A stretch of 24,000 bases of DNA from Magnetococcales bacterium (GTDB lineage Bacteria > Pseudomonadota > Magnetococcia > Magnetococcales > JADGAP01): assembly GCA_015231965.1 (NCBI GenBank), contig JADGAP010000037.1, forward strand, positions 1-24,000, written 5' to 3'. Under the pieces are notes generated by a model. It was not told the origin of the DNA. It saw only the letters and a program-made list of their open reading frames with translations, and searched no databases. A program made the position numbers and the translations under genes. Position 1 is the stretch's first letter. Each line of letters begins with the position of its first letter. Positions 5,645 through 20,517 of the stretch are shown in pieces.

Positions 5645-6226
5645 ATGAGCCATGTTCCCATACCCCCATGGAACGTCCAAGGCGTCTTGCCGCCTGTCAA
5701 CGCCCCGGACAGCACGTCCATGGATCGTTCTCCCTACCGGGTTTCCCTCATCGAACTGATTGAGCGATTTGCCACCTCCGACGAACGCCGCAACATTTTG
5801 CAAGGTTTTCTGCGTTACCGCGCCGAACTTCACGCCCTGGGGCTGACCCAGGGATTCCAATGGGTAAACGGCAGCTTCGCCGAACAGGTGGAGACTTTGG
5901 AAAATCGTCCCCCAAACGATATGGACGTGGTAACATTTTATGTACTTCCCAGCGATGTGTTGGAGGAGGAACTTGTTCGCCTCAATCCCAGTCTATTTGA
6001 TCATGATCGGATGAAGCAGAAATTCCTCGTTGATAGTTATTATGAGCCATTAAGTGGAATGCCTCCGGAATATCTGATCGAAACGTCCTCCTATTGGTAT
6101 AGTCTGTGGTCCCACCGGCGCACGATGGCTTGGAAGGGATTCCTGCAGATCAACCTAGCGCCCGATGAGGATGAGGCGGCAAACCTCGAACTCATGAACC
6201 GGATGCCGAGCGGAGCCCAACCATGA
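5645..6226 (+). CDS. Pol-beta-fold nucleotidyltransferase-like protein (from memory resembles the DUF6932 type)
   Basis: VNGSFAEQVETLENRPPNDMDVV shows the GS...DxD minimal nucleotidyltransferase signature. The N-terminus GVLPP...SPYRVSLIELIERF..S..RRNILQGF fits that family as I recall it. ATG 5645 has GGAG at 5634-5637. The segment is less GC-rich than its flanks. Confidence 0.65.
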   Translation: MSHVPIPPWNVQGVLPPVNAPDSTSMDRSPYRVSLIELIERFATSDERRNILQGFLRYRAELHALGLTQGFQWVNGSFAEQVETLENRPPNDMDVVTFYVLPSDVLEEELVRLNPSLFDHDRMKQKFLVDSYYEPLSGMPPEYLIETSSYWYSLWSHRRTMAWKGFLQINLAPDEDEAANLELMNRMPSGAQP

Positions 6227-7155
6227 ACATTGAAGAGCACCATCATCTTCTTGCGGAACGCAAGGAATTGACGCGCTTGCTGGAAAAGGCTCCTCCCCAG
6301 AAAGCCATCCTTCGCATGTCCCTTCAGTCGCGGCTGGAGTCGGTGAACGCCGAACTGGGAAAAGCGCCTGCTTCCAAACGCGCCCCCTTCCGCTCCCGCC
6401 TGACGTTTCGTGGCACCCCGGTACTGGGAAGTCACGGCATCCATGCGGCGTTCGCCACCTCCGCCGTGGAAAAAATGACCGACGCCATCGCCGCGTTCGT
6501 CGCCAGTTTCGCGGGTCCGCTGAACGCCAGGGGAGTTCTTCCCAACCGCGACAAAAATCAGTTGATGATTATCGGTACGGCCATCGGTTCGTTTGGTTTC
6601 GAGTTGGAAGAACGGATTACCAACGATGAAATGGCGTTGGATGTTCCATCTCCCGTGCAAGTCGCCACGGAGCAGGTTTGCGATTTGATGCAGGCTTCGG
6701 TCGAGAGTGACGATGATCAGCTTGCGGTGTTGGCTTCAGGGACGGATGAACGTGCAATCAAGGAGTTGCATGGCTTCATCAAGGTGCTGGCGGACAATGG
6801 GGCGGTTTGCAACCTTTCAACTGGAGAGCGTACCTTCGGCTTTCAATCGATTGAACAAGTTCGTCGTAGCTTTGAACGATTGAACCCCGACAATCTTAAG
6901 GAGACAGAGGAAACATTCTCCGGTCAATTCCTGGGCGTCCTTCCGGAAAAGAGAGAGTTTGAATTCAGCGCCTTCCCGGAGAGTCTTTTGATTCGCGGCA
7001 AGGTGAACCGAGTGATCAAGGATGCCTCGGAGATCAACCGGCTCCTGAATGGTCGGTGCCGGATCACCGTCCACGCAACCCGTGCGGGCAAGGGCAGACC
7101 CAGTTATCAGCTACTCGACTACGTCGAGGAACCTTCGTTCAACGACCTGCCGTGA
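6223..7155 (+). CDS. hypothetical protein (310 aa), N-terminal coiled coil, no recognised domain
   Basis: Its ATG overlaps the upstream stop (ATGA 6223-6226), indicating translational coupling. The composition is protein-like throughout and it is convergent with ubiB. Confidence 0.7.
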   Translation: MNIEEHHHLLAERKELTRLLEKAPPQKAILRMSLQSRLESVNAELGKAPASKRAPFRSRLTFRGTPVLGSHGIHAAFATSAVEKMTDAIAAFVASFAGPLNARGVLPNRDKNQLMIIGTAIGSFGFELEERITNDEMALDVPSPVQVATEQVCDLMQASVESDDDQLAVLASGTDERAIKELHGFIKVLADNGAVCNLSTGERTFGFQSIEQVRRSFERLNPDNLKETEETFSGQFLGVLPEKREFEFSAFPESLLIRGKVNRVIKDASEINRLLNGRCRITVHATRAGKGRPSYQLLDYVEEPSFNDLP

Positions 7156-7200
7156 GAAATCAAGCGAAATGGCGCGGAGCGACGGAGGAATTCCCCAACC

Positions 7201-8835
7201 TCACCGGATGGAGCGGGTGGCCAGCAGCACGTAGATCAGTCCCAGGCCGCAGGGGGCGCTCCACCACCAGAAGGGCATGCCTCCCGCCGCCAGGATGGCC
7301 GAGGAGATGAGGAAGGCCCCGCCGCCGATGGCCGTGGCCTGACGGCGGAAGCCGATGCTCATGCGTCGTTCCAGCCGCTCCATGGAGGCGGGGTGGAGCC
7401 GCACCTTGACCCGATCCCGGGCCAGGCGCTCCACGCCGTCGTAGATCATGCGGGGCAGATTGCCGGCGGAGTGGAACACCTCCTCGGCGTCCTGACGCAG
7501 GGTGCGCAGCTTGCCCTTGGGGCCGAGATTGTCCCGCATCCAGTCGGCGATGAGGGGTTCGGCCAGAACCCACATGTTCATCTCTGGATCCAGTTCGCGG
7601 CCCACCCCCTCCAGGGTGAACATGGTCTTCTGCAATAACAGAAGTTGCGGCTGGACCTCCATCTGGAACTGCTCGGTCACCTTGAACAGTTCGGAGAGGA
7701 GGTTGGCGATGGAGATCTCCTTGAGCGGGCGACCGAAGATGGGCTCGGCCATCTGACGGCAGGCCTCCTCGAAATCGTCCACGTCGGTGTCATCGGGAAT
7801 GTATCCCGCCGCCAGATGGATGCGGGCCACCTTGCGGTAATCCTGGCTGATGAAGCCGTGGAGCAGCTCCGCCAGCCAGATGCGGGTCTGGTGGCTCACC
7901 GTGCCGACGATGCCGAAATCGACGATGATCAAGGTGCCGTCGGGTTTCACCAGCAGGTTGCCCGGATGCTGGTCGGCGTGGAAAAAGCCGTCGCGGAACA
8001 CCTGCTTGAAAAAGACCGTCACCACGTTGCGGGCCACCCGCTGCACGTCGGGCCGGGGTCCGGGATACTGGGCCAGATCGTCGATGGGAACCCCCGTCAC
8101 CCACTCGGAGGTCATCACCCGGCGGGAGGTCAGGGGCCAGTGGATCTGGGGCACGTGCAGCACCGGGTCGCCCTCGAAATTTTTGCGAAACCGCTGCGCC
8201 CGGGCCGCCTCCACCTGAAAATTCATCTCGCCGCGAATGGTGTCGGCGAACTCCACCACCACCTTGCGGACCTTGAAGCGATTCCATTCGGGAATATGCT
8301 CCTCGATCAACTCCGCTAGGGCGGTCAGCACCCGAATGTCCTGCTCCACGATCTGTTCGACGTTGGGGCGCAGCACCTTCACCGCCACATCCCGCCCGTC
8401 CCGGGTCAACGCCCGATGCACCTGGGCGATGCTGGCCGAGGCCACCGGAACCGGCTCGATCTGACGGAACAGGGTCTCCAGGGTGTTGTTGAGATCGTCC
8501 TCGATGGTCTGCTTCACCGTCTCGAAGGGAAACGGCGGCACGTCGTCCTGGAGCCGCTTCATCTCCAGGCCGATATCCTTGGGCAGGGTCTCCATGCGGG
8601 TGGAGAGGGTCTGGCCGAACTTGATGAAGGTGGGGCCAAGCTCTTCCATGGCCATGCGCAGCCGCACCGCCCGGGGGGTGCGCCGCCGATGCCGCCACAT
8701 GAAAGGGTTCAACCCCACCACCCACACCACGGCCCGGGAGAGGAAAAACCGGTCGGCGAAGGGGACCACCCCATGCCGCGCCAAGGTGCGGAAGATGAAG
8801 GCCAACCGCAGCAAATTATGGAAAATGGAGATCAT
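7201..8835 (-). CDS. ubiB: ubiquinone biosynthesis regulatory protein kinase UbiB (ABC1/ADCK family)
   Basis: FIKFGQTLSTRMETLPKDIGLEMKRLQDDVPPFPFE...ASASIAQVHRA...VAVKVLRP...HADQHPGNLLV...DFGIVG, plus C-terminal TM segments. It is the last gene of the ubiE-ubiJ-ubiB order. Confidence 0.93.
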   Translation of the reverse strand: MISIFHNLLRLAFIFRTLARHGVVPFADRFFLSRAVVWVVGLNPFMWRHRRRTPRAVRLRMAMEELGPTFIKFGQTLSTRMETLPKDIGLEMKRLQDDVPPFPFETVKQTIEDDLNNTLETLFRQIEPVPVASASIAQVHRALTRDGRDVAVKVLRPNVEQIVEQDIRVLTALAELIEEHIPEWNRFKVRKVVVEFADTIRGEMNFQVEAARAQRFRKNFEGDPVLHVPQIHWPLTSRRVMTSEWVTGVPIDDLAQYPGPRPDVQRVARNVVTVFFKQVFRDGFFHADQHPGNLLVKPDGTLIIVDFGIVGTVSHQTRIWLAELLHGFISQDYRKVARIHLAAGYIPDDTDVDDFEEACRQMAEPIFGRPLKEISIANLLSELFKVTEQFQMEVQPQLLLLQKTMFTLEGVGRELDPEMNMWVLAEPLIADWMRDNLGPKGKLRTLRQDAEEVFHSAGNLPRMIYDGVERLARDRVKVRLHPASMERLERRMSIGFRRQATAIGGGAFLISSAILAAGGMPFWWWSAPCGLGLIYVLLATRSIR

Positions 8836-10292: not shown

Positions 10293-10451
10293 GCCAGGGG
10301 CGCTCCAAGGGGGTGAAAGGCTTTTCCGGTCCCGGGCGGCGGGGAAAATTCCGCTTTCGCCCGAGGGTGCATCGTCCATCGTGCCGTAGCATCAGGATAC
10401 GTCATTCCCCCGAAGGTCGAAAGGTGCCAGGGGATCGATGGCTTGCATTCC

Positions 10452-12974
10452 TCACGTTGCGGCGGGGCTCTCCAGCGCCTCCAGCAGCCGCCGGGCCGCC
10501 TGATTGAGGGGATCGTCCCGCAACACCCGCTGGTAAAGCTCCCGTGCCTCCTCCGTCCGCCCCAGGGAGACGAGAAAACGGGCCGCCTTGATCAACGTCA
10601 CGCCGTCGCCGGAGACCACCGCCAAATAGCGGCGATAGGCGTCCAGCGCCCCCGCCTGGTCCCCCAGCAGACGCAACAACTCGGCGTAGGGCGGCACATA
10701 GGCCGGGGAAAGTTCGGCCATGCGCCGCAACACCGCCCGCCCCTCCTCGTAAAGGCCGCGCCCCAGGGTCAGGCCGGTCATGCGCTGCAAGGCGTCAGGG
10801 AGCAACTCGGGATGGTCCACCTGACGATATTCGGCCAGGGCGGCCTCGGGATCGTTTTCCAACTCCCGCAACAGGCCCCGGGCCAGATGCAGGGCCGGTT
10901 CGCGATCCGCCATGGCCACCGAGGGGAGGGAGGCGACGAAATCCCGCAGCTTTTCCAACTCTTTTTGCAGAAAAAACGATTGGGCCTTGGCCCGCACCGT
11001 CGCCGGGGTGGGTTGGGTCTGCCAGGAGCGCTTGGACAACTCCTCGCCATGAAACAGCGCCTCGTGGGCGGCGAGAAACGCCTCCAGCCGCCGGACGACG
11101 GCGGGGGGATGGTCCGCCAGGGGGCGGCCGCAACGGTCGAGATAGACCTGGGCCCGCCCGGGGGTTTGGTCCCGCTCCCACTGGGCGAAAAGAAGCTTGA
11201 AGTCGGGCCGCTCCTTCTCCTCCTCCACTCGGGAGCGCACCCGCTGTCGGGCGGCGTCGATGAACTTCACCACCTCGGCGGCGCTCTCCCGATAAATTTC
11301 GTAGTAACGCCGCCCGGTGCGCTCCACCTCGGCGACGGACCACGCCTTCTCCTTGTCCGGGCGGGAGAGGCGGAGGAATTCCGATACCCCCCAGCGTCGC
11401 ACCATCAGGGACCAGGGCCCCAGCCGCTGATTCAACTCCTCTTCCAGACGATCCATCTTGTCCTTGCAGGAAAAATCCGCCGGTTTGCCCTGGCGTCCGA
11501 AGAGCCGGTCGTTGAGCTCGATCCCCTGGGCCGCCAGGGCGCGAATCTCCTCCACCACGCCGCGCACCCGGAACAACTCCCGCTCCACCGCCTCGCAGTG
11601 GGCCAGCCGCTCCGCCCGACCGGGGAGGGGGAGGCGTTCCCACAAGGTTTCCCGCGCCGAGCGGGGGAGGGGGGCGATGGCCACCGACTCCAGGGGTTGA
11701 TGCCGCACGTGGGGAACTTTCGCCGCCCCGGGGGCGGGGTTGATCACCGCGCAGCCCCGCATTGCGCCGAACTCGGCCACCTGCCCCAGGCTGGGGATGG
11801 CGTGGTAGAAGTCGTACCAGGTTTCGGCCATCCAGCCGCCGTTGGTCTCCACCTGCAACTCGGCCAACTCCACCGAGGGGCCCAGGGCGCTTTCGGCGCT
11901 GCCCTTGGCGTAGATGTACCCCTCGCGGCTGAAGCAGAGATCCAGCCCCGCCAGCACCACGTTGCGGCACCCCATCTCGACCATCAGCCCCAGCAGTTGA
12001 TGGGAGACGGTGATGCCGGGAAAATAATAATTGTCCGGATTGTTTTCGGTGGGCCAGGGAAAGCGGTAGCCCATGTAGGCCGATCGACCCCGCCAGGGGG
12101 CCAGCAACCAGGGGTGGACGTGGAAAAAGTTGACGTAGAGGCTCTCTTGCCAAAAATCCAGCATCTCCTTGCCGTTGTGGAAGATGATGTCGTAGGGGTC
12201 GATGGCCATGAACAGGTCGGGGATCACCCCCGCCTCCCGCAACTGCCGGGCGTTGCGCGACACCGCCGCCACCAGCAGATGCTCCCGATGGGCCTTGACC
12301 CAGGGAATGACCGCCTCCCACGACGGCCCCCCGGCGAGCAAAATCCCCGTCGCCCCGGGCAGAACGTCCCGCAGCAGCGGTGCCGGGGTGAGGTTTTCCG
12401 CCAGATTTTCCATGCCCCGCAGCAGGAAAATCTGGTTGCCCATGTCCATGTCCACCTGGATCTTGATCATCCCCAGGTCGTGCTTGAAACGGTTCCACAA
12501 GGGGACGTAGCCCGGATGGAAGCCATCCGCCGCCGCCAGGGATTTATAGGCCCGCACCCGGTCGGAGTAGTAATAGTCGCTGACGCCCAGCTTTGTCGCC
12601 GCCTCCACCCACTCGCCGGGAGGGAGAAGCAACATCTGGTGGGGCAGACCCTCGGGCAGAACCTCCCGCCGGATGCGGGGGATCAGCGCCTCGAACTCGA
12701 CGAAAAGGTAGCGGCTGCCGGCGGGGAGGGGTTGGCGCAAAATGTAGCGGATCAACAGTCCGCCGTCGCAGCCGACGAAAAGATAGAGGGCGTCCTCTTC
12801 CCAGAGGTCCTCCAGGTAGATGCGGCGAAACACCGCCTCCGAGCCGACGCCGGAAAAACTTTCCCGGTTGAGGGCGGGCAGATAGGGTTCGCCGAAGGCG
12901 TTGCGCAAAAAGGGTCCGAAGTCGTCGGTCATGATGATGGCGCGGCGCGGGAAAAAGTGGTATTGATTCACCAA
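10452..12974 (-). CDS. Maf-type (DUF115/MptE-like) putative flagellin glycosyltransferase fused to C-terminal TPR repeats
   Basis: ILLAGGPSWEAVIPWVKAHREHLLVAAVSRNARQLREAGVIPDLFMAIDPYD reproduces the GxGPS...PD...D core of DUF115/Maf proteins. The C-terminus has TPR-like repeats (AEYRQV..., LYEEGRAV..., AYRRYLAV...). The start is uncertain: TTG 12974, GTG 12971 or ATG 12932. Confidence 0.78.
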   Translation of the reverse strand: MVNQYHFFPRRAIIMTDDFGPFLRNAFGEPYLPALNRESFSGVGSEAVFRRIYLEDLWEEDALYLFVGCDGGLLIRYILRQPLPAGSRYLFVEFEALIPRIRREVLPEGLPHQMLLLPPGEWVEAATKLGVSDYYYSDRVRAYKSLAAADGFHPGYVPLWNRFKHDLGMIKIQVDMDMGNQIFLLRGMENLAENLTPAPLLRDVLPGATGILLAGGPSWEAVIPWVKAHREHLLVAAVSRNARQLREAGVIPDLFMAIDPYDIIFHNGKEMLDFWQESLYVNFFHVHPWLLAPWRGRSAYMGYRFPWPTENNPDNYYFPGITVSHQLLGLMVEMGCRNVVLAGLDLCFSREGYIYAKGSAESALGPSVELAELQVETNGGWMAETWYDFYHAIPSLGQVAEFGAMRGCAVINPAPGAAKVPHVRHQPLESVAIAPLPRSARETLWERLPLPGRAERLAHCEAVERELFRVRGVVEEIRALAAQGIELNDRLFGRQGKPADFSCKDKMDRLEEELNQRLGPWSLMVRRWGVSEFLRLSRPDKEKAWSVAEVERTGRRYYEIYRESAAEVVKFIDAARQRVRSRVEEEKERPDFKLLFAQWERDQTPGRAQVYLDRCGRPLADHPPAVVRRLEAFLAAHEALFHGEELSKRSWQTQPTPATVRAKAQSFFLQKELEKLRDFVASLPSVAMADREPALHLARGLLRELENDPEAALAEYRQVDHPELLPDALQRMTGLTLGRGLYEEGRAVLRRMAELSPAYVPPYAELLRLLGDQAGALDAYRRYLAVVSGDGVTLIKAARFLVSLGRTEEARELYQRVLRDDPLNQAARRLLEALESPAAT

Positions 12975-13151
12975 GCCCGTCTTAATTCATGAATTTCTGC
13001 TGCAAGCGCACCAGGAGCGCGCCAGGACTGCGTTGCGCTCGGTCGCCGATCCTCACCGCGCAATGAGCGCGGTTCCGGTCGTCGCCCTTCGCGCGCCTTG
13101 TCCTGGCGCGCCCTGGACGCTTTCGCGACGAAATTCATGAATAAGACGGGC
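12975..13151. repeat. 177-bp imperfect palindromic (MITE-like) element with 22-23 nt terminal inverted repeats
   Basis: GCCCGTCTTAATTCATGAATTTC (12975-12997) matches the reverse complement of GAAATTCATGAATAAGACGGGC (13130-13151) with one indel. Subterminal GCGCGCCAGGAC blocks are also inverted. It lies between divergent genes. Confidence 0.6.
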
Positions 13152-15332: not shown

Positions 15333-15551
15333 GGGGATTGTTCTGGACTCGCGTCATGAATTGGAATTACATGGAGGCATCCGTTCATAGTTTTATCCCG
15401 TGTATCCGTGGACCCCGGTGGAACGTCCCTGATCCAAGCGCCCCTTAAAAGGCCACGTCCACCGGGGCCGGTTTATAGCAATTCCATTTTAAAATTGTAC
15501 GTATCGTCAAGCGGAGCCTGGGTTATGCAACCAGCTCCCCAACCACGGAAA

Positions 15552-15696
15552 CGTCATTCCCGCGAAAGCGGGAATCCAGGGGGCGGGGGCGGGAGATGCA
15601 GAGATTGCTACGAGGGACCAAGCCTTTTTTCCGTTTGTTTGAAGGGAGCCATTCATCAATCGGCTTTCCTGGATTCCCGCTTCCGCGGGAATGACG
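15552..15696. mobile_element. MITE-like element with 29-nt terminal inverted repeats, each holding its own hairpin
   Basis: CGTCATTCCCGCGAAAGCGGGAATCCAGG (15552-15580) matches the reverse complement of CCTGGATTCCCGCTTCCGCGGGAATGACG (15668-15696) at 28 of 29 positions. Each arm contains a TCCCGC-N4-GCGGGA stem-loop. ORFs across it give the artefact peptides RHSRESGNPG and LDSRFRGNDG. Confidence 0.6.
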
Positions 15697-15820
15697 GTTT
15701 ATTTTTTGGAGTGAGTTCCTTGCTCCCTCAAGCTCATGGTGCGCCAATCTCAAATGTAACGACTATAAAAAGCAGGCGCGCCCTCGGGTTGGCGGGGAAA
15801 TTCGTCCTGGAAGGGTGGTC

Positions 15821-16069
15821 ATGATCGCTCTTACGCTGCCGCAAGAGGCGGAAAATCGGCTTCAAGAGTTGGCCCATGAAACGGGTCGGTCGGTGGAGGA
15901 GTGCCTAAAGGAGGCTGCCTTTCTCTACCTTGAGGCGATGGAAGAGCGGCGGGATGCGGCGGACGCCCGAGTGGTCCTGGAAGAGCATCGACGCGCCCCC
16001 GGTGCCCCGTTCACCCTGGATGACGCCCTGGAGCGCTATGGGCTCCGACGGGAAACCTTGGGTCCATGA
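15821..16069 (+). CDS. ribbon-helix-helix type II antitoxin (RelB/DinJ/ParD-like)
   Basis: Small acidic protein MIALTLPQEAENRLQELAHETGRSVEECLKEA... with an N-terminal RHH pattern. ATG 15821 follows GGAAGGG. Its stop overlaps the downstream toxin start (ATGA 16066-16069). Confidence 0.72.
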   Translation: MIALTLPQEAENRLQELAHETGRSVEECLKEAAFLYLEAMEERRDAADARVVLEEHRRAPGAPFTLDDALERYGLRRETLGP

Positions 16070-16329
16070 GGTTTACCGTTGATTTGCAACTGGTCCGGAA
16101 AACCTTGGACCGGTTGTCCCCCGAGATGCGGCGGCAAATTCTTTACGCCGCCATGACGCTGGAGGCCGATCCTCATCCTCCGGGTTCCCTCAAATTGCAG
16201 GGATTGGACGATGTGTGGCGCCTTCGGGTTGGAGATTACCGCATCCTCTACACCGTTGAAGAGGAACAGGTACGGATTCTGCTGCTGAAAATCGCTCATC
16301 GGCGCGAGGTTTATCGAGGACTTCCATGA
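16066..16329 (+). CDS. RelE/ParE-family type II toxin
   Basis: ...LKLQGLDDVWRLRVGDYRILYTVEEEQVRILLLKIAHRREVYR is the canonical RelE/ParE C-terminal pattern (yRlRvGdYRiiY...v.v..i.hRr.vY). Confidence 0.85.
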   Translation: MRFTVDLQLVRKTLDRLSPEMRRQILYAAMTLEADPHPPGSLKLQGLDDVWRLRVGDYRILYTVEEEQVRILLLKIAHRREVYRGLP

Positions 16330-16467
16330 TGCCCGGCACGCCTTCCGCCTCGCCCGCCCCGTCGAACGGCGTTTCCCCTTGAGTGGATTGACCACTCTCC
16401 CGAACTTCCGCCCCGGCGGGAGCGGGGGCTTTGCCGCGCCCGTTACCGTGAAAGAACATCGTCCAGG

Positions 16468-16514: not shown

Positions 16515-16605
16515 CCGGGGCCGGATGAGAGCCCTTGGTTTCTTCATGATCCGAGGGGAGCGGGGACTTTGCCACTCTCGTTAGGAATGACGACCCCAAC
16601 CCGGC

Positions 16606-17628
16606 TCAATGGCCAGGTTTTTGTTGCGGAATCGCCTTGCCCAGCAGATCGCTGACCTTGGAAAAAATGGCCTCGTGGCTCTCTTTTTCCAGGCGCGCCT
16701 TTTCCAGATCGACCGTGGTCTCGTCCTTCTTCAAAATAAAATTCCGCTCCGTCTTGGAAAGCTCCTGAATGATGGCCTTGACCGATTCGGTTTCCTTCAT
16801 GGCGATGGCGGTCATCAAGGCCACCTGCTTGCATTCCAGGCTGGTCAACTCGTTTTGGTAATATTTGATGTGATCATGGCTGAGTTTGTAGAGCCGGAGA
16901 AAAAATAGGGAGAGCAGTTCGACCATCAAGACCATCGACACCCGTGGCAGATAGATTTCCATAATAAAATCCGGTTTAACATATTTCGGATCCAGGGGCG
17001 CGGTTGGTGCGCTCCCCATTGAGAGCACCGACCACAAAATATAGACGCCAAACACCGCCAGCAAAATTCCGATGATCAGGTTGACCTTTCCTCTTCTTAA
17101 TAAGCTTGAAATCTCGTTGATAATCCTTTGTCTTGTATCATAAAAATAGTCGTCAATTCTTTTCATGCGATGGTCGTCCCCGACCTTTTCCTTGATCTCC
17201 CCGAGCAACTCTTCTCCGGCGCTTTTCTTGGCGGAATCCAGAATCGACTCCACAATTATTTTCCGATCATTTTCATCAATCCCTTGCTTGGCATTTTGGA
17301 TGGTGAAAATCAAATTTTTGAGTTCATTTATTGTTTGATGAAATGCAGGGTATAAATTATCTTTTCTTGAGCGCGCTATAAGCTCGGAAAGATCATCCCT
17401 ATGATTTCCTGATAGCGTGCGCCACAACATGAAAATCACTGAATATATTGCGAGCCCAAAGATAAATATCTTAAAATAATTCTTTGTTGCCAGCGCACTA
17501 ATAATATTAGCAGCATGGTCACGGGTATCTTCCGAAGTGTACATAATCGATAAAATCACCGTAAGCATCATCGCAATTACCAACAAAGCTTTTGAAACTT
17601 TATGTATACGATCTGGATTTATAAACAT
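16606..17628 (-). CDS. hypothetical membrane protein (340 aa; about four predicted TM helices plus coiled-coil segments), strongly AT-rich foreign-looking gene
   Basis: ATG 17628 has AGAGGTG upstream. Hydrophobic helices: ALLVIAMMLTVILSIMY, IFIFGLAIYSVIFMLW, VNLIIGILLAVFGVYILWSVL, VSMVLMVELLSLFFLRLY, separated by charged K/E-rich helical regions. Codon usage (AAA, ATT, TTT, GAT) is unlike the rest of the window. Confidence 0.8.
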   Translation of the reverse strand: MFINPDRIHKVSKALLVIAMMLTVILSIMYTSEDTRDHAANIISALATKNYFKIFIFGLAIYSVIFMLWRTLSGNHRDDLSELIARSRKDNLYPAFHQTINELKNLIFTIQNAKQGIDENDRKIIVESILDSAKKSAGEELLGEIKEKVGDDHRMKRIDDYFYDTRQRIINEISSLLRRGKVNLIIGILLAVFGVYILWSVLSMGSAPTAPLDPKYVKPDFIMEIYLPRVSMVLMVELLSLFFLRLYKLSHDHIKYYQNELTSLECKQVALMTAIAMKETESVKAIIQELSKTERNFILKKDETTVDLEKARLEKESHEAIFSKVSDLLGKAIPQQKPGH

Positions 17629-17854
17629 GGATCACCTCTTGACGGGAAATTAAGAGTCCTAGCCTCAACATCACAAAACTGCTTGACAGCGTAATCGGGT
17701 TATTGTTTTGACTCAAGGAAAATCATGCAGAAAATATTCTCAACCCATAATAATCCACATCTCCTCCCATGATCGCCAGTGGCGACGGGTGGACGCATCG
17801 CGCCGGATTCCAGTCGTCGACGTGGTGGAGGGTTTCTTTCCACGGGAGAGACGG

Positions 17855-17935
17855 AAACGCTCCCTCTCGGTGGAAATCCTCAAGGCCCTGGCCCGCGCGC
17901 CAAGTGGACGCGACGAGGCCCTTGTGGGGATCACC
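17855..17935 (+). pseudogene. orphan fragment duplicating the 3' end of the HTH antitoxin gene
   Basis: 17855-17911 (AAACGCTCCCTCTCGGTGGAAATCCTCAAGGCCCTGGCCCGCGC-GCCAAGTGGACGC) matches 18554-18612 with one substitution and a 2-nt indel. Weaker similarity continues to about 17935 and 18637. It encodes KRSLSVEILKALARA versus KRSLSVETLKALARAL, with no upstream remainder of the gene. Confidence 0.6.
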
Positions 17936-17963
17936 CTGCCTCTCTCCGGTGGGAGAGGGGGCG
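17931..17963. repeat. REP-like hairpin repeat (right copy, inverted relative to 16468-16514)
   Basis: TCACCCTGCCTCTCTCCGGTGGGAGAGGGGGCG. CTCTCC/GGAGAG forms a stem around a GGTG loop. Confidence 0.4.
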
Positions 17964-17980
17964 TTGCGCCGAATGAAGAC

Positions 17981-18014: not shown

Positions 18015-18272
18015 ATGTACGCCATCACCTACGAAAAGAACGCCCTGAAAATGCTCCAGAAGATGCCCCGGAACGAAGCGCGGCGGGTGCTTCAGGCGGT
18101 GGAGCGGCTGGCCTCGGACCCTCGGGTGCCGGGGTTGGACGTCAAAGCCTTGCGGGGCGAGTCGGGGTACAGGCTGCGGGTTGGGGATTGGCGAGTCCTC
18201 TATGAACTGCTGGAAGACCGTCTGATCGTCTGGGTGTTGGACATCGGCGCCAGAGGGGGGATCTATTCATGA
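18015..18272 (+). CDS. RelE/ParE-family type II toxin (HigB-like gene order, toxin first)
   Basis: ...LRGESGYRLRVGDWRVLYELLEDRLIVWVLDIGARGGIY has the same RelE/ParE signature as 16066..16329. Its stop overlaps the downstream ATG (ATGA 18269-18272). Confidence 0.85.
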   Translation: MYAITYEKNALKMLQKMPRNEARRVLQAVERLASDPRVPGLDVKALRGESGYRLRVGDWRVLYELLEDRLIVWVLDIGARGGIYS

Positions 18273-18646
18273 ACGTGCAGCGCATCGAACAAGATGGCGA
18301 GGCGGTTTTCGCCGTCCTGCCCTACGCGGAGTTTCAAAGCCTGATGGAAGAGCTTGAAGAGCTGCGCGACGCGGCAGCCTTCGGCGCGGCCCGGGCGCGG
18401 CGGGAGGAGGGCTTTCCCGGCGCGGTGGCCCAGCGACTGCTCAACGGCGAATCTCCCGTGAAGGTGTTTCGCGAACATCGGGGGCTGACCCAGGCGGCGT
18501 TGGCCCAGCAATGCGGCGTCGCCCCCGCGACCATCAGCCAGTTGGAATCGGGCAAACGCTCCCTCTCGGTGGAAACCCTCAAGGCCCTGGCCCGCGCCCT
18601 CCAAGTGGACGCCGACATGCTCTTGGGGGGATCAGGGAACGAATGA
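18269..18646 (+). CDS. XRE-family HTH antitoxin (HigA-like) with an N-terminal extension
   Basis: LTQAALAQQCGVAPATISQLESGKRSLSVETLKALARALQVDADML is a Cro/C1 (HTH_3) motif. It is translationally coupled to the upstream toxin. Confidence 0.85.
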   Translation: MNVQRIEQDGEAVFAVLPYAEFQSLMEELEELRDAAAFGAARARREEGFPGAVAQRLLNGESPVKVFREHRGLTQAALAQQCGVAPATISQLESGKRSLSVETLKALARALQVDADMLLGGSGNE

Positions 18647-18966: not shown

Positions 18967-20517
18967 ATGCCCCTTCCCCTGTTTCGCCTGCTGCTCATCG
19001 AGTGCGACGTCTTCTTCTTCTCGGAGGAGAAGGGGATCCATGTCAACGAGGCGATGCCCCCCATCGGGTTGATGTACCTTTCCAGCTTTCTCAAGAAGCA
19101 TCTGGCGGGGGAGGCGCGGGTGGAGGTGGGGTTGATCGACATGGCGGTGGAACGGCTGACCCGGGAAAGTTTGTCGGCCCAGCCCACGCCCCAGCTCATC
19201 GGACTGCGGGCGCTGACCAAGAACAAGGAGCTGTTTCACCAGACCGCCGCCCTGTGCCGGGAAATTTTTCCCGAGGTTCCCATCATCGGGGGCGGACCCT
19301 ACGTCACGGCGGACTACGACGCGGCGCTGCTGGACCCCCATCTGGAGTGCGGGGTCTCCGGCGAGGGGGAATATCCCTTGCTGGAGATGGCCCGGCGGCT
19401 GCTGGCCGGGGATCGGGCAGGGTTGCTGACGGTGAACGGCGTGGTGCGGCGGGACGGCGTTTCCGGCGAGATCCTGCAAAATCCCCCCCAGCAAAAGCCC
19501 GATCTCAACGCCGAGCCCATGCCCGACTACTCCCTCATCGACATGGACCGCTTCGCCCAGGTGATCTGCAACGCCAAGGTCAAGCGCCGACAGGGGGTGA
19601 TTACCGCGTCCCGGGGATGCCCGTTTCAATGCATCTACTGCCACAATATTTTCGGACGGAAAATTCGCGCCCGTACCCCGGAAAACGTCCTGGATGAAAT
19701 CTCCTACCTCTATCATGAACATCAGGTGCGGGATTTCTTTTTCGTCGATGACGTATTCAACATCAGCGCCAAGCGGACCATCGGGCTGTGCAATTTAATT
19801 CAACAGTCCGGATTGAAGATCCACATGTATTTTCAGAACGGTTTTCGCGGCGATTTATGCACCCGGGAGGTGGTGGACGCCTGCGTCGAGGCGGGGATGA
19901 TCCTGGTCAACTTCGCGGTGGAGTCCAGTTCGCCCCGCTTGCAGGCGTTGATGAAGAAAAACCTCGACGTGGACAAACTGGCGGAGATGATCCACTACAC
20001 CTGCACCCACGACATCATCGTCGGCATCAACTCGATGATCGGTTTTCCCAGCGAGACGCTGGAGGAGGCGGAGGGGACGATTCGCTATCTGGCCCAGTTC
20101 AAAAAGGTGGCGCTGCCCTTTTTCTTCATCGCCCGTTACTATCCCCACACCGAAATGTACGCCATGGCGGTGGCCGACGGTTTTCCCCAGTCGATGCTGG
20201 ATCGCCATTCGGAGAAGGTCTACCACGACGTGACCCTGCCCACCCCCACCCTGTCGGCGGGGCAGTTGCAGGGGTTGTTCCAGAAATATCTGGTGGAGGT
20301 CTTTTTCAATCGGGAGCGGCTGGAAAACGTGCAGCGGATTTTGCAGCGTTTTTTCACCCCCGAGGATATTCGGGATTTCTACTCCACGCTGCTGAACCGG
20401 CGGATCGTGGATGTGGAGCGGGAGGTGTTGGGGCGGGGCTTTGGTCCGACGTCGGAGTCGGGCGGTGCCCCTCCCCGGTCGGCCCACGCCGAGCCCCACG
20501 ATCGGGGCGAGGCGTGA
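18967..20517 (+). CDS. B12-binding domain-containing radical SAM protein (class B radical SAM family)
   Basis: The N-terminal cobalamin-binding-like region is RLLLIE...MPPIGLMYLSSFLKKH...IGLRALT...PIIGGGPYVT. The radical SAM cluster motif is ITASRGCPFQCIYCHN (CxxxCxxC). Confidence 0.9.
   Translation: MPLPLFRLLLIECDVFFFSEEKGIHVNEAMPPIGLMYLSSFLKKHLAGEARVEVGLIDMAVERLTRESLSAQPTPQLIGLRALTKNKELFHQTAALCREIFPEVPIIGGGPYVTADYDAALLDPHLECGVSGEGEYPLLEMARRLLAGDRAGLLTVNGVVRRDGVSGEILQNPPQQKPDLNAEPMPDYSLIDMDRFAQVICNAKVKRRQGVITASRGCPFQCIYCHNIFGRKIRARTPENVLDEISYLYHEHQVRDFFFVDDVFNISAKRTIGLCNLIQQSGLKIHMYFQNGFRGDLCTREVVDACVEAGMILVNFAVESSSPRLQALMKKNLDVDKLAEMIHYTCTHDIIVGINSMIGFPSETLEEAEGTIRYLAQFKKVALPFFFIARYYPHTEMYAMAVADGFPQSMLDRHSEKVYHDVTLPTPTLSAGQLQGLFQKYLVEVFFNRERLENVQRILQRFFTPEDIRDFYSTLLNRRIVDVEREVLGRGFGPTSESGGAPPRSAHAEPHDRGEA

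Follow-up and report, generated by a model that had tools for sequence, protein, structure and literature searches.

This report concerns the first 24,000 nucleotides of contig JADGAP010000037.1 from a Magnetococcales bacterium (GenBank assembly GCA_015231965.1), hereafter the window, and one AT-rich gene within it. The gene occupies positions 16606 to 17628 on the minus strand as an ATG-started open reading frame (ORF) and encodes a protein of 340 amino acids (aa) that a profile match assigns to family phrog_5157. It is the only minus-strand gene in a small islet of toxin-antitoxin (TA) modules and repeats. It is intact, and in its extent and lone orientation it is as a first-pass annotation of this DNA had described it. 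Its family, which is very large and so far without a name, consists of four-pass inner membrane proteins, and we consider the gene a reasonable candidate for an anti-phage membrane effector.

The Shine-Dalgarno (SD) sequence noted in the first-pass annotation could be located precisely: its GAGG core occupies positions 17638 to 17635, 6 nucleotides (nt) before the ATG, within an AT-rich 5' leader and putative promoter region (17629 to 17770, minus strand) that forms part of the same low-GC segment as the gene. The deposited gene call is only 321 aa long and starts at Met20 of the 340-aa ORF (region 17566 to 17628). We prefer the longer form because the upstream ATG has an SD sequence and keeps the first transmembrane segment (TM1) whole; a start at Met20 would cut TM1 and has no SD sequence. 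The deposited call is therefore probably 19 codons too short.

Hydropathy places four hydrophobic segments at approximately residues 12 to 31, 52 to 72, 182 to 205, and 226 to 244. An AlphaFold2 model built with the family alignment is all-helical (predicted local distance difference test score, 79), with a very long helix that runs from the cytoplasmic linker into TM3 (residues 119 to 204) and a second long helix that runs from TM4 into the tail (residues 219 to 276). Hydropathy and model thus agree with the earlier description of two N-terminal and two central hydrophobic helices separated by long charged helical regions.

A large and still unnamed membrane protein family

The gene had first been called an orphan without a recognizable family, and homology searches overturn both statements. 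Residues 20 to 328 of the product match positions 25 to 325 of the 331 positions of phrog_5157 (PHROGs v4; E = 2e-29), which amounts to a full-length match to a family that is annotated as "unknown function" and has neither name nor category. A first homology search returned 55 homologs at 30 to 44% identity. A profile built on an alignment of 54 members (profile A1), which gives the window ORF 305 bits, retrieved 3,059 representatives of 50%-identity clusters at E ≤ 1e-3, 1,795 of them at E ≤ 1e-30. At least 203 species genomes have a member, as do 89 predicted proviral contigs; the members there are all less than 45% identical to the window copy, and the hosts include all classes of Proteobacteria together with Bacteroidota, Acidobacteriota, Verrucomicrobiota, Nitrospirota, Chloroflexota, Gemmatimonadota, and one Firmicute.

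Public names for these proteins are all "hypothetical protein," save two spurious JGI names. Literature searches on phrog_5157 and on the enterobacterial accessions found no papers, and those on SLATT and Thoeris TM effectors found no description of a family matching phrog_5157. No domain fusions were seen among 830 profile hits of 160 to 345 aa or among the best 150 representatives. Comparison with solved structures in the PDB, by sequence and by profile, returned noise only. A clear match to a known transporter or structural family, which the first-pass annotation had named as evidence that would speak against its view of the gene, did not appear in the Pfam, NCBIfam, PADLOC, PDB, or Foldseek searches.

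Conservation differs sharply between the two ends of the protein. The N-terminal half (residues 1 to ∼165), comprising TM1, TM2, and a helical linker of ∼100 residues, is variable and is the worst conserved part, with a mean frequency of the commonest residue of 0.17 to 0.35. The corresponding values are 0.48 for TM3, 0.68 for TM4, and 0.56 for the C-terminal tail, TM4 and the tail being the best conserved parts. The C-terminal motifs of the family are "RRxNxNLxIG" before TM3, "F-x-E/Q-x-F-A-x-F-F-L-R-L-Y-K" in TM4, "IKYYQNELTN," and "KTERNFILKKDETT"; the window protein has every one of them (RRxNxNLxIG, the E/Q of TM4, FFLRLYK, KYYQNELT, and ERNFILKK-D/G-E-T/S-T). Invariant or nearly invariant among the 54 members are R168, the stretch R-R-x-N-x-N183-L184-x-I-G187, and T/S191; P228-R229 at the periplasmic end of TM4; F242-F243-L244-R/K-L-Y247-K and K255-Y-Y-Q-N-E260-L-T262; and E294-R-N-F-I-L-K-K301, T305, and E309. 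A membrane-embedded E/Q237 is found in all 54 (E in 44 and Q in 10). With an N-terminal half that is hypervariable and a module of TM3, TM4, and tail that is nearly invariant, the protein offers direct handles for mutagenesis.

Loops 1 and 2, which lie within the two TM pairs, have family means of 11 and 16 aa and are poor in K and R, and the N terminus, linker, and tail are K/R rich; a topology with both termini in the cytoplasm is therefore predicted family-wide. In the window protein approximately 200 of the 340 residues are predicted to be cytoplasmic, and the predicted periplasmic loops measure 11 to 20 aa. With so much of the protein inside and such tiny loops outside, sensing of a cytoplasmic cue fits better than blocking entry from without.

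Base composition and genomic contexts of family members

The GC content of the gene is 0.435, compared with 0.62 for the whole window and 0.60 to 0.70 for neighboring genes, and the 17- to 18-kb bin is the minimum of the window (0.454), as had been claimed. The companion claim, that codons end in A or T throughout, stands in part: GC at third codon positions (GC3) is 0.537, far under the host value of 0.84, and about half of the codons nevertheless end in G or C. Because the deficit extends to all three codon positions (0.46/0.31/0.54 versus 0.69/0.45/0.84 in pooled host genes), the composition is foreign throughout. The low-GC tract runs from ∼16.6 to 16.7 kb to ∼17.77 kb and includes ∼140 bp upstream of the start, where GC remains at 0.37 to 0.40 up to ∼17740 and a change-point falls at ∼17773.

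Among 130 loci, the family gene is less GC rich than its flanks in 99%, by more than 0.05 in 90%, and by 0.13 on average, and its GC content correlates with that of the host (r = 0.83). In hosts above 58% GC, family genes range from 0.38 to 0.60, and the 0.435 of the window copy is typical. The AT bias is a systematic trait of the whole family, as it is of much mobile and defense cargo, and not a local anomaly. It follows that low GC alone neither proves recent transfer nor dates the acquisition, a caution against reading "recent transfer" from low GC by itself. The earlier description of the gene as recently acquired remains plausible, given its foreign codon composition and an AT-rich segment that abuts a truncated TA module; the part of that argument that took low GC as proof falls away.

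For the contexts of homologs, 168 loci were fetched, reduced to 142 nonredundant ones, and all ORFs within 5 kb of the family gene were clustered. No obligate partner gene emerged in the 142 loci. The top neighbor family, an integrase, was present in 16, immediately downstream and convergent, with a CI-like repressor ∼2.3 kb off. Recurrent neighbors comprised two integrase types, a CI/S24 repressor, two terminase types, portal protein, Dam, and antiterminator Q, and the genes immediately upstream were heterogeneous (Rha in three loci; holin, antiterminator Q, valS, a C5-methylase, and ThsB_TIR in two each). An integrase or phage marker lay within 8 kb in at least 18 of 77 genome loci versus 43 of 60 proviral contigs, and the family gene was often at the edge of predicted proviruses.

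Individual loci make the mobile associations concrete. At L072 the family gene is preceded by tRNA-Ser and followed by the integrase, and hence is located within an integrative element. In Escherichia coli MS 16-3, Citrobacter, and Klebsiella aerogenes, SPI-7/PAPI-type integrative and conjugative elements (ICEs) carry a copy as cargo, with HipBA and a HEPN protein close by; the cargo of the E. coli MS 16-3 element (L171; NZ_CP146667.1, positions 4018875 to 4043912) also holds an autotransporter. The enterobacterial member WP_001230900 recurs in identical or nearly identical form on 448 contigs, which come from E. coli, Citrobacter, and K. aerogenes. Among the other copies, one immediately follows a Dcm-HATPase-Vsr cluster, one shares a P4-like island with a BglII-type endonuclease, and one is on a contig of phage- or plasmid-like character that encodes a protein-primed polymerase. 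In one prophage (L007) a gene for a 342-aa DUF4062 protein (6509 to 7537) stands immediately upstream. Locus L004 is a defense island that contains an integrase, a small TM protein, a ThsB-type Toll/interleukin-1 receptor (TIR) protein, the family gene, a methyltransferase and Endonuclease_7 forming a restriction-modification pair, AbiTii, and GmrSD. The first-pass term "cargo gene" is borne out by this range of settings, which takes in accessory positions of prophages, an ICE, a P4-like island, clusters of restriction genes, and a defense island and is spread patchily across phyla.

These same positions suit a protein that acts in superinfection or entry exclusion, sitting in the inner membrane of a lysogen or ICE host and blocking incoming phage or conjugative DNA without killing the cell, in the manner of classical prophage exclusion proteins or the entry-exclusion proteins of plasmids. 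Superinfection exclusion (Sie) genes of temperate phages typically occupy accessory positions on the lysogeny side, and the solitary family gene with its convergent integrase and nearby CI-like repressor is placed in just this way; one copy travels as ICE cargo, and the product is an inner membrane protein with no enzymatic domain. The periplasmic loops, however, are not only tiny but poorly conserved, and the conserved TM3, TM4, and tail fit cytoplasmic sensing or gating better. Moreover, Pfam and PADLOC show no similarity to SieB or other known exclusion families, and the TIR operons described below suggest an effector that is activated by a signal. We regard exclusion as unlikely.

Also unlikely, in our estimation, is a nondefense accessory role, whether as an envelope or stress-fitness factor, as a modulator of lysis timing or lysogeny, or in maintenance of the element. 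Phrog_5157 is among the ∼87% of PHROG families that have no known function, the family has no significant similarity to any defense model, some copies are found beside holins or in the interval from antiterminator Q to the lysis region, and 59 of the 77 genome loci carry neither a mobile-element nor a defense marker from a limited marker set. A part in the phage's own lysis or replication is nonetheless hard to reconcile with the occurrence of the gene at several different accessory positions, not in one module. Its absence from all isolated phage genomes examined and its co-occurrence with restriction-modification, Abi, TIR, HEPN, and OLD-type genes likewise tell against a nondefense role.

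Defense neighborhoods, TIR operons, and the proposed effector

Defense neighbors were sampled at 49 genome loci with full flanks, taking four genes per locus, the two immediate neighbors and the two outermost ones 6 to 8 kb away. PADLOC detected OLD-, Gabija-, PARIS-, and Septu-type ATPases among both sets, and the distal neighbors also included MADS components, AbiLi, and a defense reverse transcriptase. The neighborhoods are rich in defense-type genes, without tight adjacency.

Two loci, L004 (an unclassified bacterium) and L010 (Pseudomonas), go further, since in both, independently, a tightly spaced operon runs from a small multi-TM protein through a ThsB-like TIR protein to the family gene. 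The small multi-TM proteins, of 142 aa (L004, 7044 to 7472) and 148 aa (L010, 1459 to 1905), are mutually homologous, as are the TIR proteins, of 148 aa (L004) and 131 aa (L010), which match ThsB_TIR/TIR_2 in Pfam. DUF4062, encoded upstream of the family gene in L007, has a suggested connection with TIR-like folds or with folds that process nucleosides; should this connection hold, the DUF4062 protein would be a third signaling-type neighbor of the family. The small multi-TM protein itself represents a large unnamed family, with 2,023 hits of 142 to 152 aa that have no Pfam domain and are always called "hypothetical," in hosts that include Vibrio, Pseudoalteromonas, Halomonas, Serratia, Citrobacter, and Xenorhabdus. 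Searches of viral contigs matched neither the small-TM nor the TIR partner, and a search of plasmids gave no match to the small-TM protein.

Vibrio homologs of the L010 small-TM and TIR proteins (E = 4e-82 and 2e-45, respectively) belong to a five-gene cassette (L256, 3030 to 8052; also L257 to L261) whose products are a P-loop protein (621 aa), a small TM protein (148 aa), a TIR-like protein (127 aa), a three-TM protein (121 aa), and a protein of 551 aa that has two TMs at its C terminus. The cassette is mobile, occurring in at least two different chromosomal contexts, and none of its five genes has a precomputed Pfam hit; it looks like a candidate undescribed TIR-based defense system. Here the 121-aa and 551-aa membrane proteins and the P-loop protein stand in place of the phrog_5157 family. 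Since the same small-TM and TIR core is thus joined to other membrane proteins in Vibrio, the family fills a swappable membrane-partner slot in a minority of its loci.

A precedent for such operons exists in the P2-like phage AC1, in which a TIR protein and two TM proteins constitute an experimentally validated defense system; its authors suggest activation of the TM proteins by the product of the TIR protein and note that TM proteins of defense systems are commonly regarded as suicide effectors (PMC9122126). The L004 and L010 operons share the three-gene logic of the AC1 system (Rousset et al. 2022, PMC9122126), in which tightly spaced genes on one strand encode a TIR protein together with one small and one larger TM protein. 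The TM counts of the AC1 proteins differ from those of the phrog_5157-family operons, and the three-gene arrangement is confined to L004 and L010; the window copy, like ∼98% of loci, has neither a TIR nor a small-TM neighbor. In DefenseFinder the AC1 system is named Rst_2TM_1TM_TIR. A PADLOC-DB 2.0.0 search gave no match of that name for the family, the inclusion of the corresponding models in that database being unconfirmed. As for Thoeris, which pairs a ThsB (TIR) gene with a ThsA effector (SIR2/SLOG or Macro-TM), a ThsB-like TIR gene lies upstream of the family gene in L004 and L010; the window has no TIR gene, and its protein has no SIR2, SLOG, or Macro domain and no PADLOC ThsA match.

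From these contexts we tentatively propose, at slightly less than an even chance, that the family protein is a stand-alone, cytoplasm-sensing, membrane-permeabilizing anti-phage effector of the abortive-infection (Abi) type, carried as cargo of mobile elements. The first-pass suggestion of a membrane-acting Abi or exclusion function is the best hypothesis at hand and gains some support from the two TIR operons and the defense-rich neighborhoods. Between its two halves we favor the Abi type over exclusion at the outer face because of the large cytoplasmic mass, the tiny unconserved loops, and the TIR operons.

Under this proposal, the protein would insert in the inner membrane with its N and C termini in the cytoplasm. 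The TM3-TM4 hairpin, with the membrane-embedded E/Q237 and with N183, G187, and T/S191, together with a juxtamembrane polar cluster on the cytoplasmic side (Y247, K255, Y256, Q258, N259, E260, T262, and "ERNFILKK"), could form an oligomerizing effector or gate module. The poorly conserved N-terminal half (TM1-TM2 and the ∼100-residue linker) might set specificity or hold the gate closed. A cytoplasmic infection cue would then open the gate, the membrane potential would collapse, and the infection would abort; in the minority of loci with an adjacent TIR enzyme, the product of that enzyme may be the cue. Expression, oligomerization, pore activity, trigger, and anti-phage effect are postulated steps of this scheme. 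A broader claim would be that the family forms a new, widespread class of membrane anti-phage effectors, solitary in most elements, whose three-gene form is gated by a TIR-made nucleotide signal and constitutes an undescribed Thoeris-like system with interchangeable membrane effectors; this we consider doubtful.

Several results weigh against an Abi-type effector. Pfam and NCBIfam hold no significant family for the window protein or for the 54 members. At E ≤ 1, PADLOC-DB 2.0.0 gave 0 families for the window protein, and when all 54 members were run, signals were confined to four, at 1e-4 to 1e-5, against models for reverse transcriptase-associated SLATT and for ZorB. Foldseek comparisons of the full-length model and of the conserved C-terminal module with the PDB, and of the full-length model with BFVD, reached best E values of 0.1 to 0.6, to generic long-helix proteins. 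A simple scan upstream of the gene did not find a consensus sigma-70 promoter. The window has no homolog of the TIR or small-TM proteins, and TIR linkage is seen in just 2 of ∼126 to 142 loci, or 3 if the DUF4062 neighbor is counted. Defense-type genes are no commoner next to the family gene than 6 to 8 kb away in the 49 loci, a comparison that is local and not genome-wide. A tblastn search of 50,697 isolated phage genomes with three different members gave no match, so that the "viral" contexts are those of predicted proviruses, whose borders are uncertain. Finally, a subclade of 279- to 280-aa members (P0007 and P0013; L001, 8001 to 9982; L169, 8001 to 9951; and L003) follows valS and has the same convergent, unannotated 338-aa neighbor. 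The synteny was seen in two related genomes, and the subclade is possibly a domesticated, stably chromosomal branch.

That last observation also lends itself to the view that this is a normal chromosomal gene whose membrane protein product serves a conserved cellular function, the low GC being a result of amino acid composition. Low GC that is family-wide, not specific to the window, agrees with such a view, and the correlation with host GC implies long residence in lineages of similar composition. The spread of the family is very patchy, however, the enterobacterial variant being found in 1 of 5,426 complete E. coli genomes. With the exception of the subclade beside valS, the conserved synteny with housekeeping genes that the first-pass annotation had named as contrary evidence is missing from the 142 loci, whose contexts are often a prophage, an ICE, or an island. 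A GC3 that is 0.30 under that of host genes shows that the deficit is not due to amino acid composition alone, and the gene interrupts a TA module in the window. A housekeeping role is very unlikely.

Comparison with other membrane systems yields likeness in architecture. The two-TM effectors of the SLATT type (Burroughs et al. 2015) have, as does this family, a conserved TM hairpin core with flanking cytoplasmic helices, and the SLATT-5 protein of DRT10/UG17, at ∼186 aa, is similar in size to the ∼190-aa conserved core of the family. The PADLOC model RTasSLATT was weakly matched by 4 of the 54 members (best E = 7.6e-5), and Pfam SLATT was matched neither by the window protein nor among the 25 of 79 families that are listed as matches of the 54 members. 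The family differs in its extra N-terminal TM pair and in being mostly stand-alone: of the nucleotide-generating or -processing enzymes to which SLATT proteins are coupled (SMODS, SLOG, reverse transcriptase, TIR, and mCpol), none is encoded in the window, and a TIR-like upstream gene is present in 2 or 3 of 126 loci.

Lambda RexB, P22 SieA, and lactococcal Sie2009 resemble the family in being small to mid-sized inner membrane proteins encoded as prophage accessory genes near an integrase or repressor, and RexB has four TMs. Neither Pfam nor PADLOC detects homology to these proteins, and the family protein exceeds them greatly in size, contains two long helical regions in the cytoplasm, and has no RexA-like partner. 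MotA has the same topology, with a large helical domain in the cytoplasm between TM1-TM2 and TM3-TM4 and a cytoplasmic tail at the end, and also has a conserved carboxylate in the last TM. Weak stator signals were seen: Pfam MotA_ExbB matched two of the 54 members (0.003), and ExbB and TolQ came up in Foldseek at E values of 3 to 5. Identity with MotA, ExbB, or TolQ was rejected: hhalign of profile A1, a weak test with its single-sequence templates but a clearly negative one, gave a probability of 0.15% with E. coli TolQ and 0.12% with MotA, and no MotB-, ExbD-, or TolR-type partner is conserved in the 142 loci.

If the family protein is a defense effector, a function would be in hand for ∼3,000 clusters that have no Pfam, NCBIfam, or PADLOC model, including those on ICEs of clinical Enterobacteriaceae, and the defense catalog would gain a single-gene membrane system together with a TIR-linked three-gene variant. 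The significance of the window itself is more modest, as one more solitary copy of this mobile cargo in a TA/repeat islet of a housekeeping region.

The surrounding islet and the rest of the window

Type II TA modules with RelE/ParE-family toxins flank the gene on both sides, as first reported, and each pairs a ParE_toxin domain with a small DNA-binding antitoxin. The first module (15815 to 16329, plus strand) consists of a ribbon-helix-helix antitoxin (15815 to 16069; RHH_5) and a ParE/RelE-family toxin (16066 to 16329; PF05016, 1e-9). The second (18015 to 18646, plus strand) has the reverse order, a ParE/RelE-family toxin (18015 to 18272; PF05016, 3e-8) preceding a helix-turn-helix (HTH) antitoxin (18269 to 18646; HTH_3). 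Sequence comparison likewise substantiates the broken antitoxin copy of the first-pass annotation: positions 17855 to 17933 (plus strand) are a remnant of a further HTH-type antitoxin gene and duplicate the 3' ∼80 bp of the HTH antitoxin gene of the second module (18554 to 18634) in two adjoining pieces of 98% and 78% identity. The left breakpoint at 17855 is sharp, the homology beginning abruptly where it adjoins the foreign segment.

The repeats are arranged differently from what had been proposed. An inverted pair of repetitive extragenic palindromic (REP) hairpins, ATTCCCGCGAAAGCGGGAAT and ATTCCCGCTTCCGCGGGAAT, does exist within 15549 to 15699 (no strand assigned; 15549 to 15580 and 15668 to 15699), at the left edge of the islet and not bracketing the gene. 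The repeat that actually flanks the gene is a GC-rich direct repeat of 33 nt, with one copy at 16413 to 16445, one directly past the stop codon of the gene (16551 to 16583, plus strand), and a degenerate (67%), palindromic, REP-like copy inserted right after the antitoxin remnant (17946 to 17978, plus strand). The simplest history is that the gene arrived with its leader on a foreign segment of ∼1.15 kb, which took the place of most of a ParE-HTH module within a small TA/REP islet. The idea of an integron cassette was dropped; the window has no integrase, the 33-nt repeats are unconvincing as attC sites by inspection rather than by a formal attC model, and no tRNA or Rfam element is present.

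The gene might in principle be a functional part of the flanking modules, as a third component or as a membrane toxin under control of a neighboring antitoxin. It does have a ParE-type module on either side and an antitoxin remnant beside it, and TA genes also occur near the copies in E. coli, L004, and L007. Yet all TA genes are on the other strand, each module has its full toxin-antitoxin pair without this gene, the neighboring antitoxin copy is an 80-bp remnant and dead, and ParE or HTH homologs are found near the family gene in only 2 to 4 of the 142 loci. The TA association is not a trait of the family, and a functional tie to these modules is scarcely credible.

The remaining window is ordinary proteobacterial housekeeping chromosome, with genes for a sigma-54 activator, ubiE-ubiJ(SCP2)-ubiB(ABC1), an aldolase-SDR fusion, a B12-radical SAM enzyme, an APH-type kinase, and pgk. 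A search across the window found no integrase, tRNA, or Rfam element. The best relatives of the flanking aldolase-SDR gene on metagenome contigs are 59% identical, with no synteny with other window genes. A patch of lower GC (0.54 to 0.57) at 5645 to 7155 holds a gene for a DUF6932 protein (5645 to 6226), the stop of which overlaps the start of a 310-aa ORF without a Pfam family (6223 to 7155), and may be another small accessory islet. Positions 1 to 2000 have a GC content of 0.55 to 0.56 and include a 220-aa ORF without a family (607 to 1269), and 19400 to 20400, inside the B12-radical SAM gene, is at 0.53 to 0.58; the region around the islet may thus be more mosaic than the TA islet alone. 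At 10443 to 12992, two ORFs of ∼840 aa on opposite strands overlap almost fully, and domains (MptE-like plus TPR) are found on the minus-strand ORF only; the plus-strand ORF is a typical shadow ORF of high-GC DNA.

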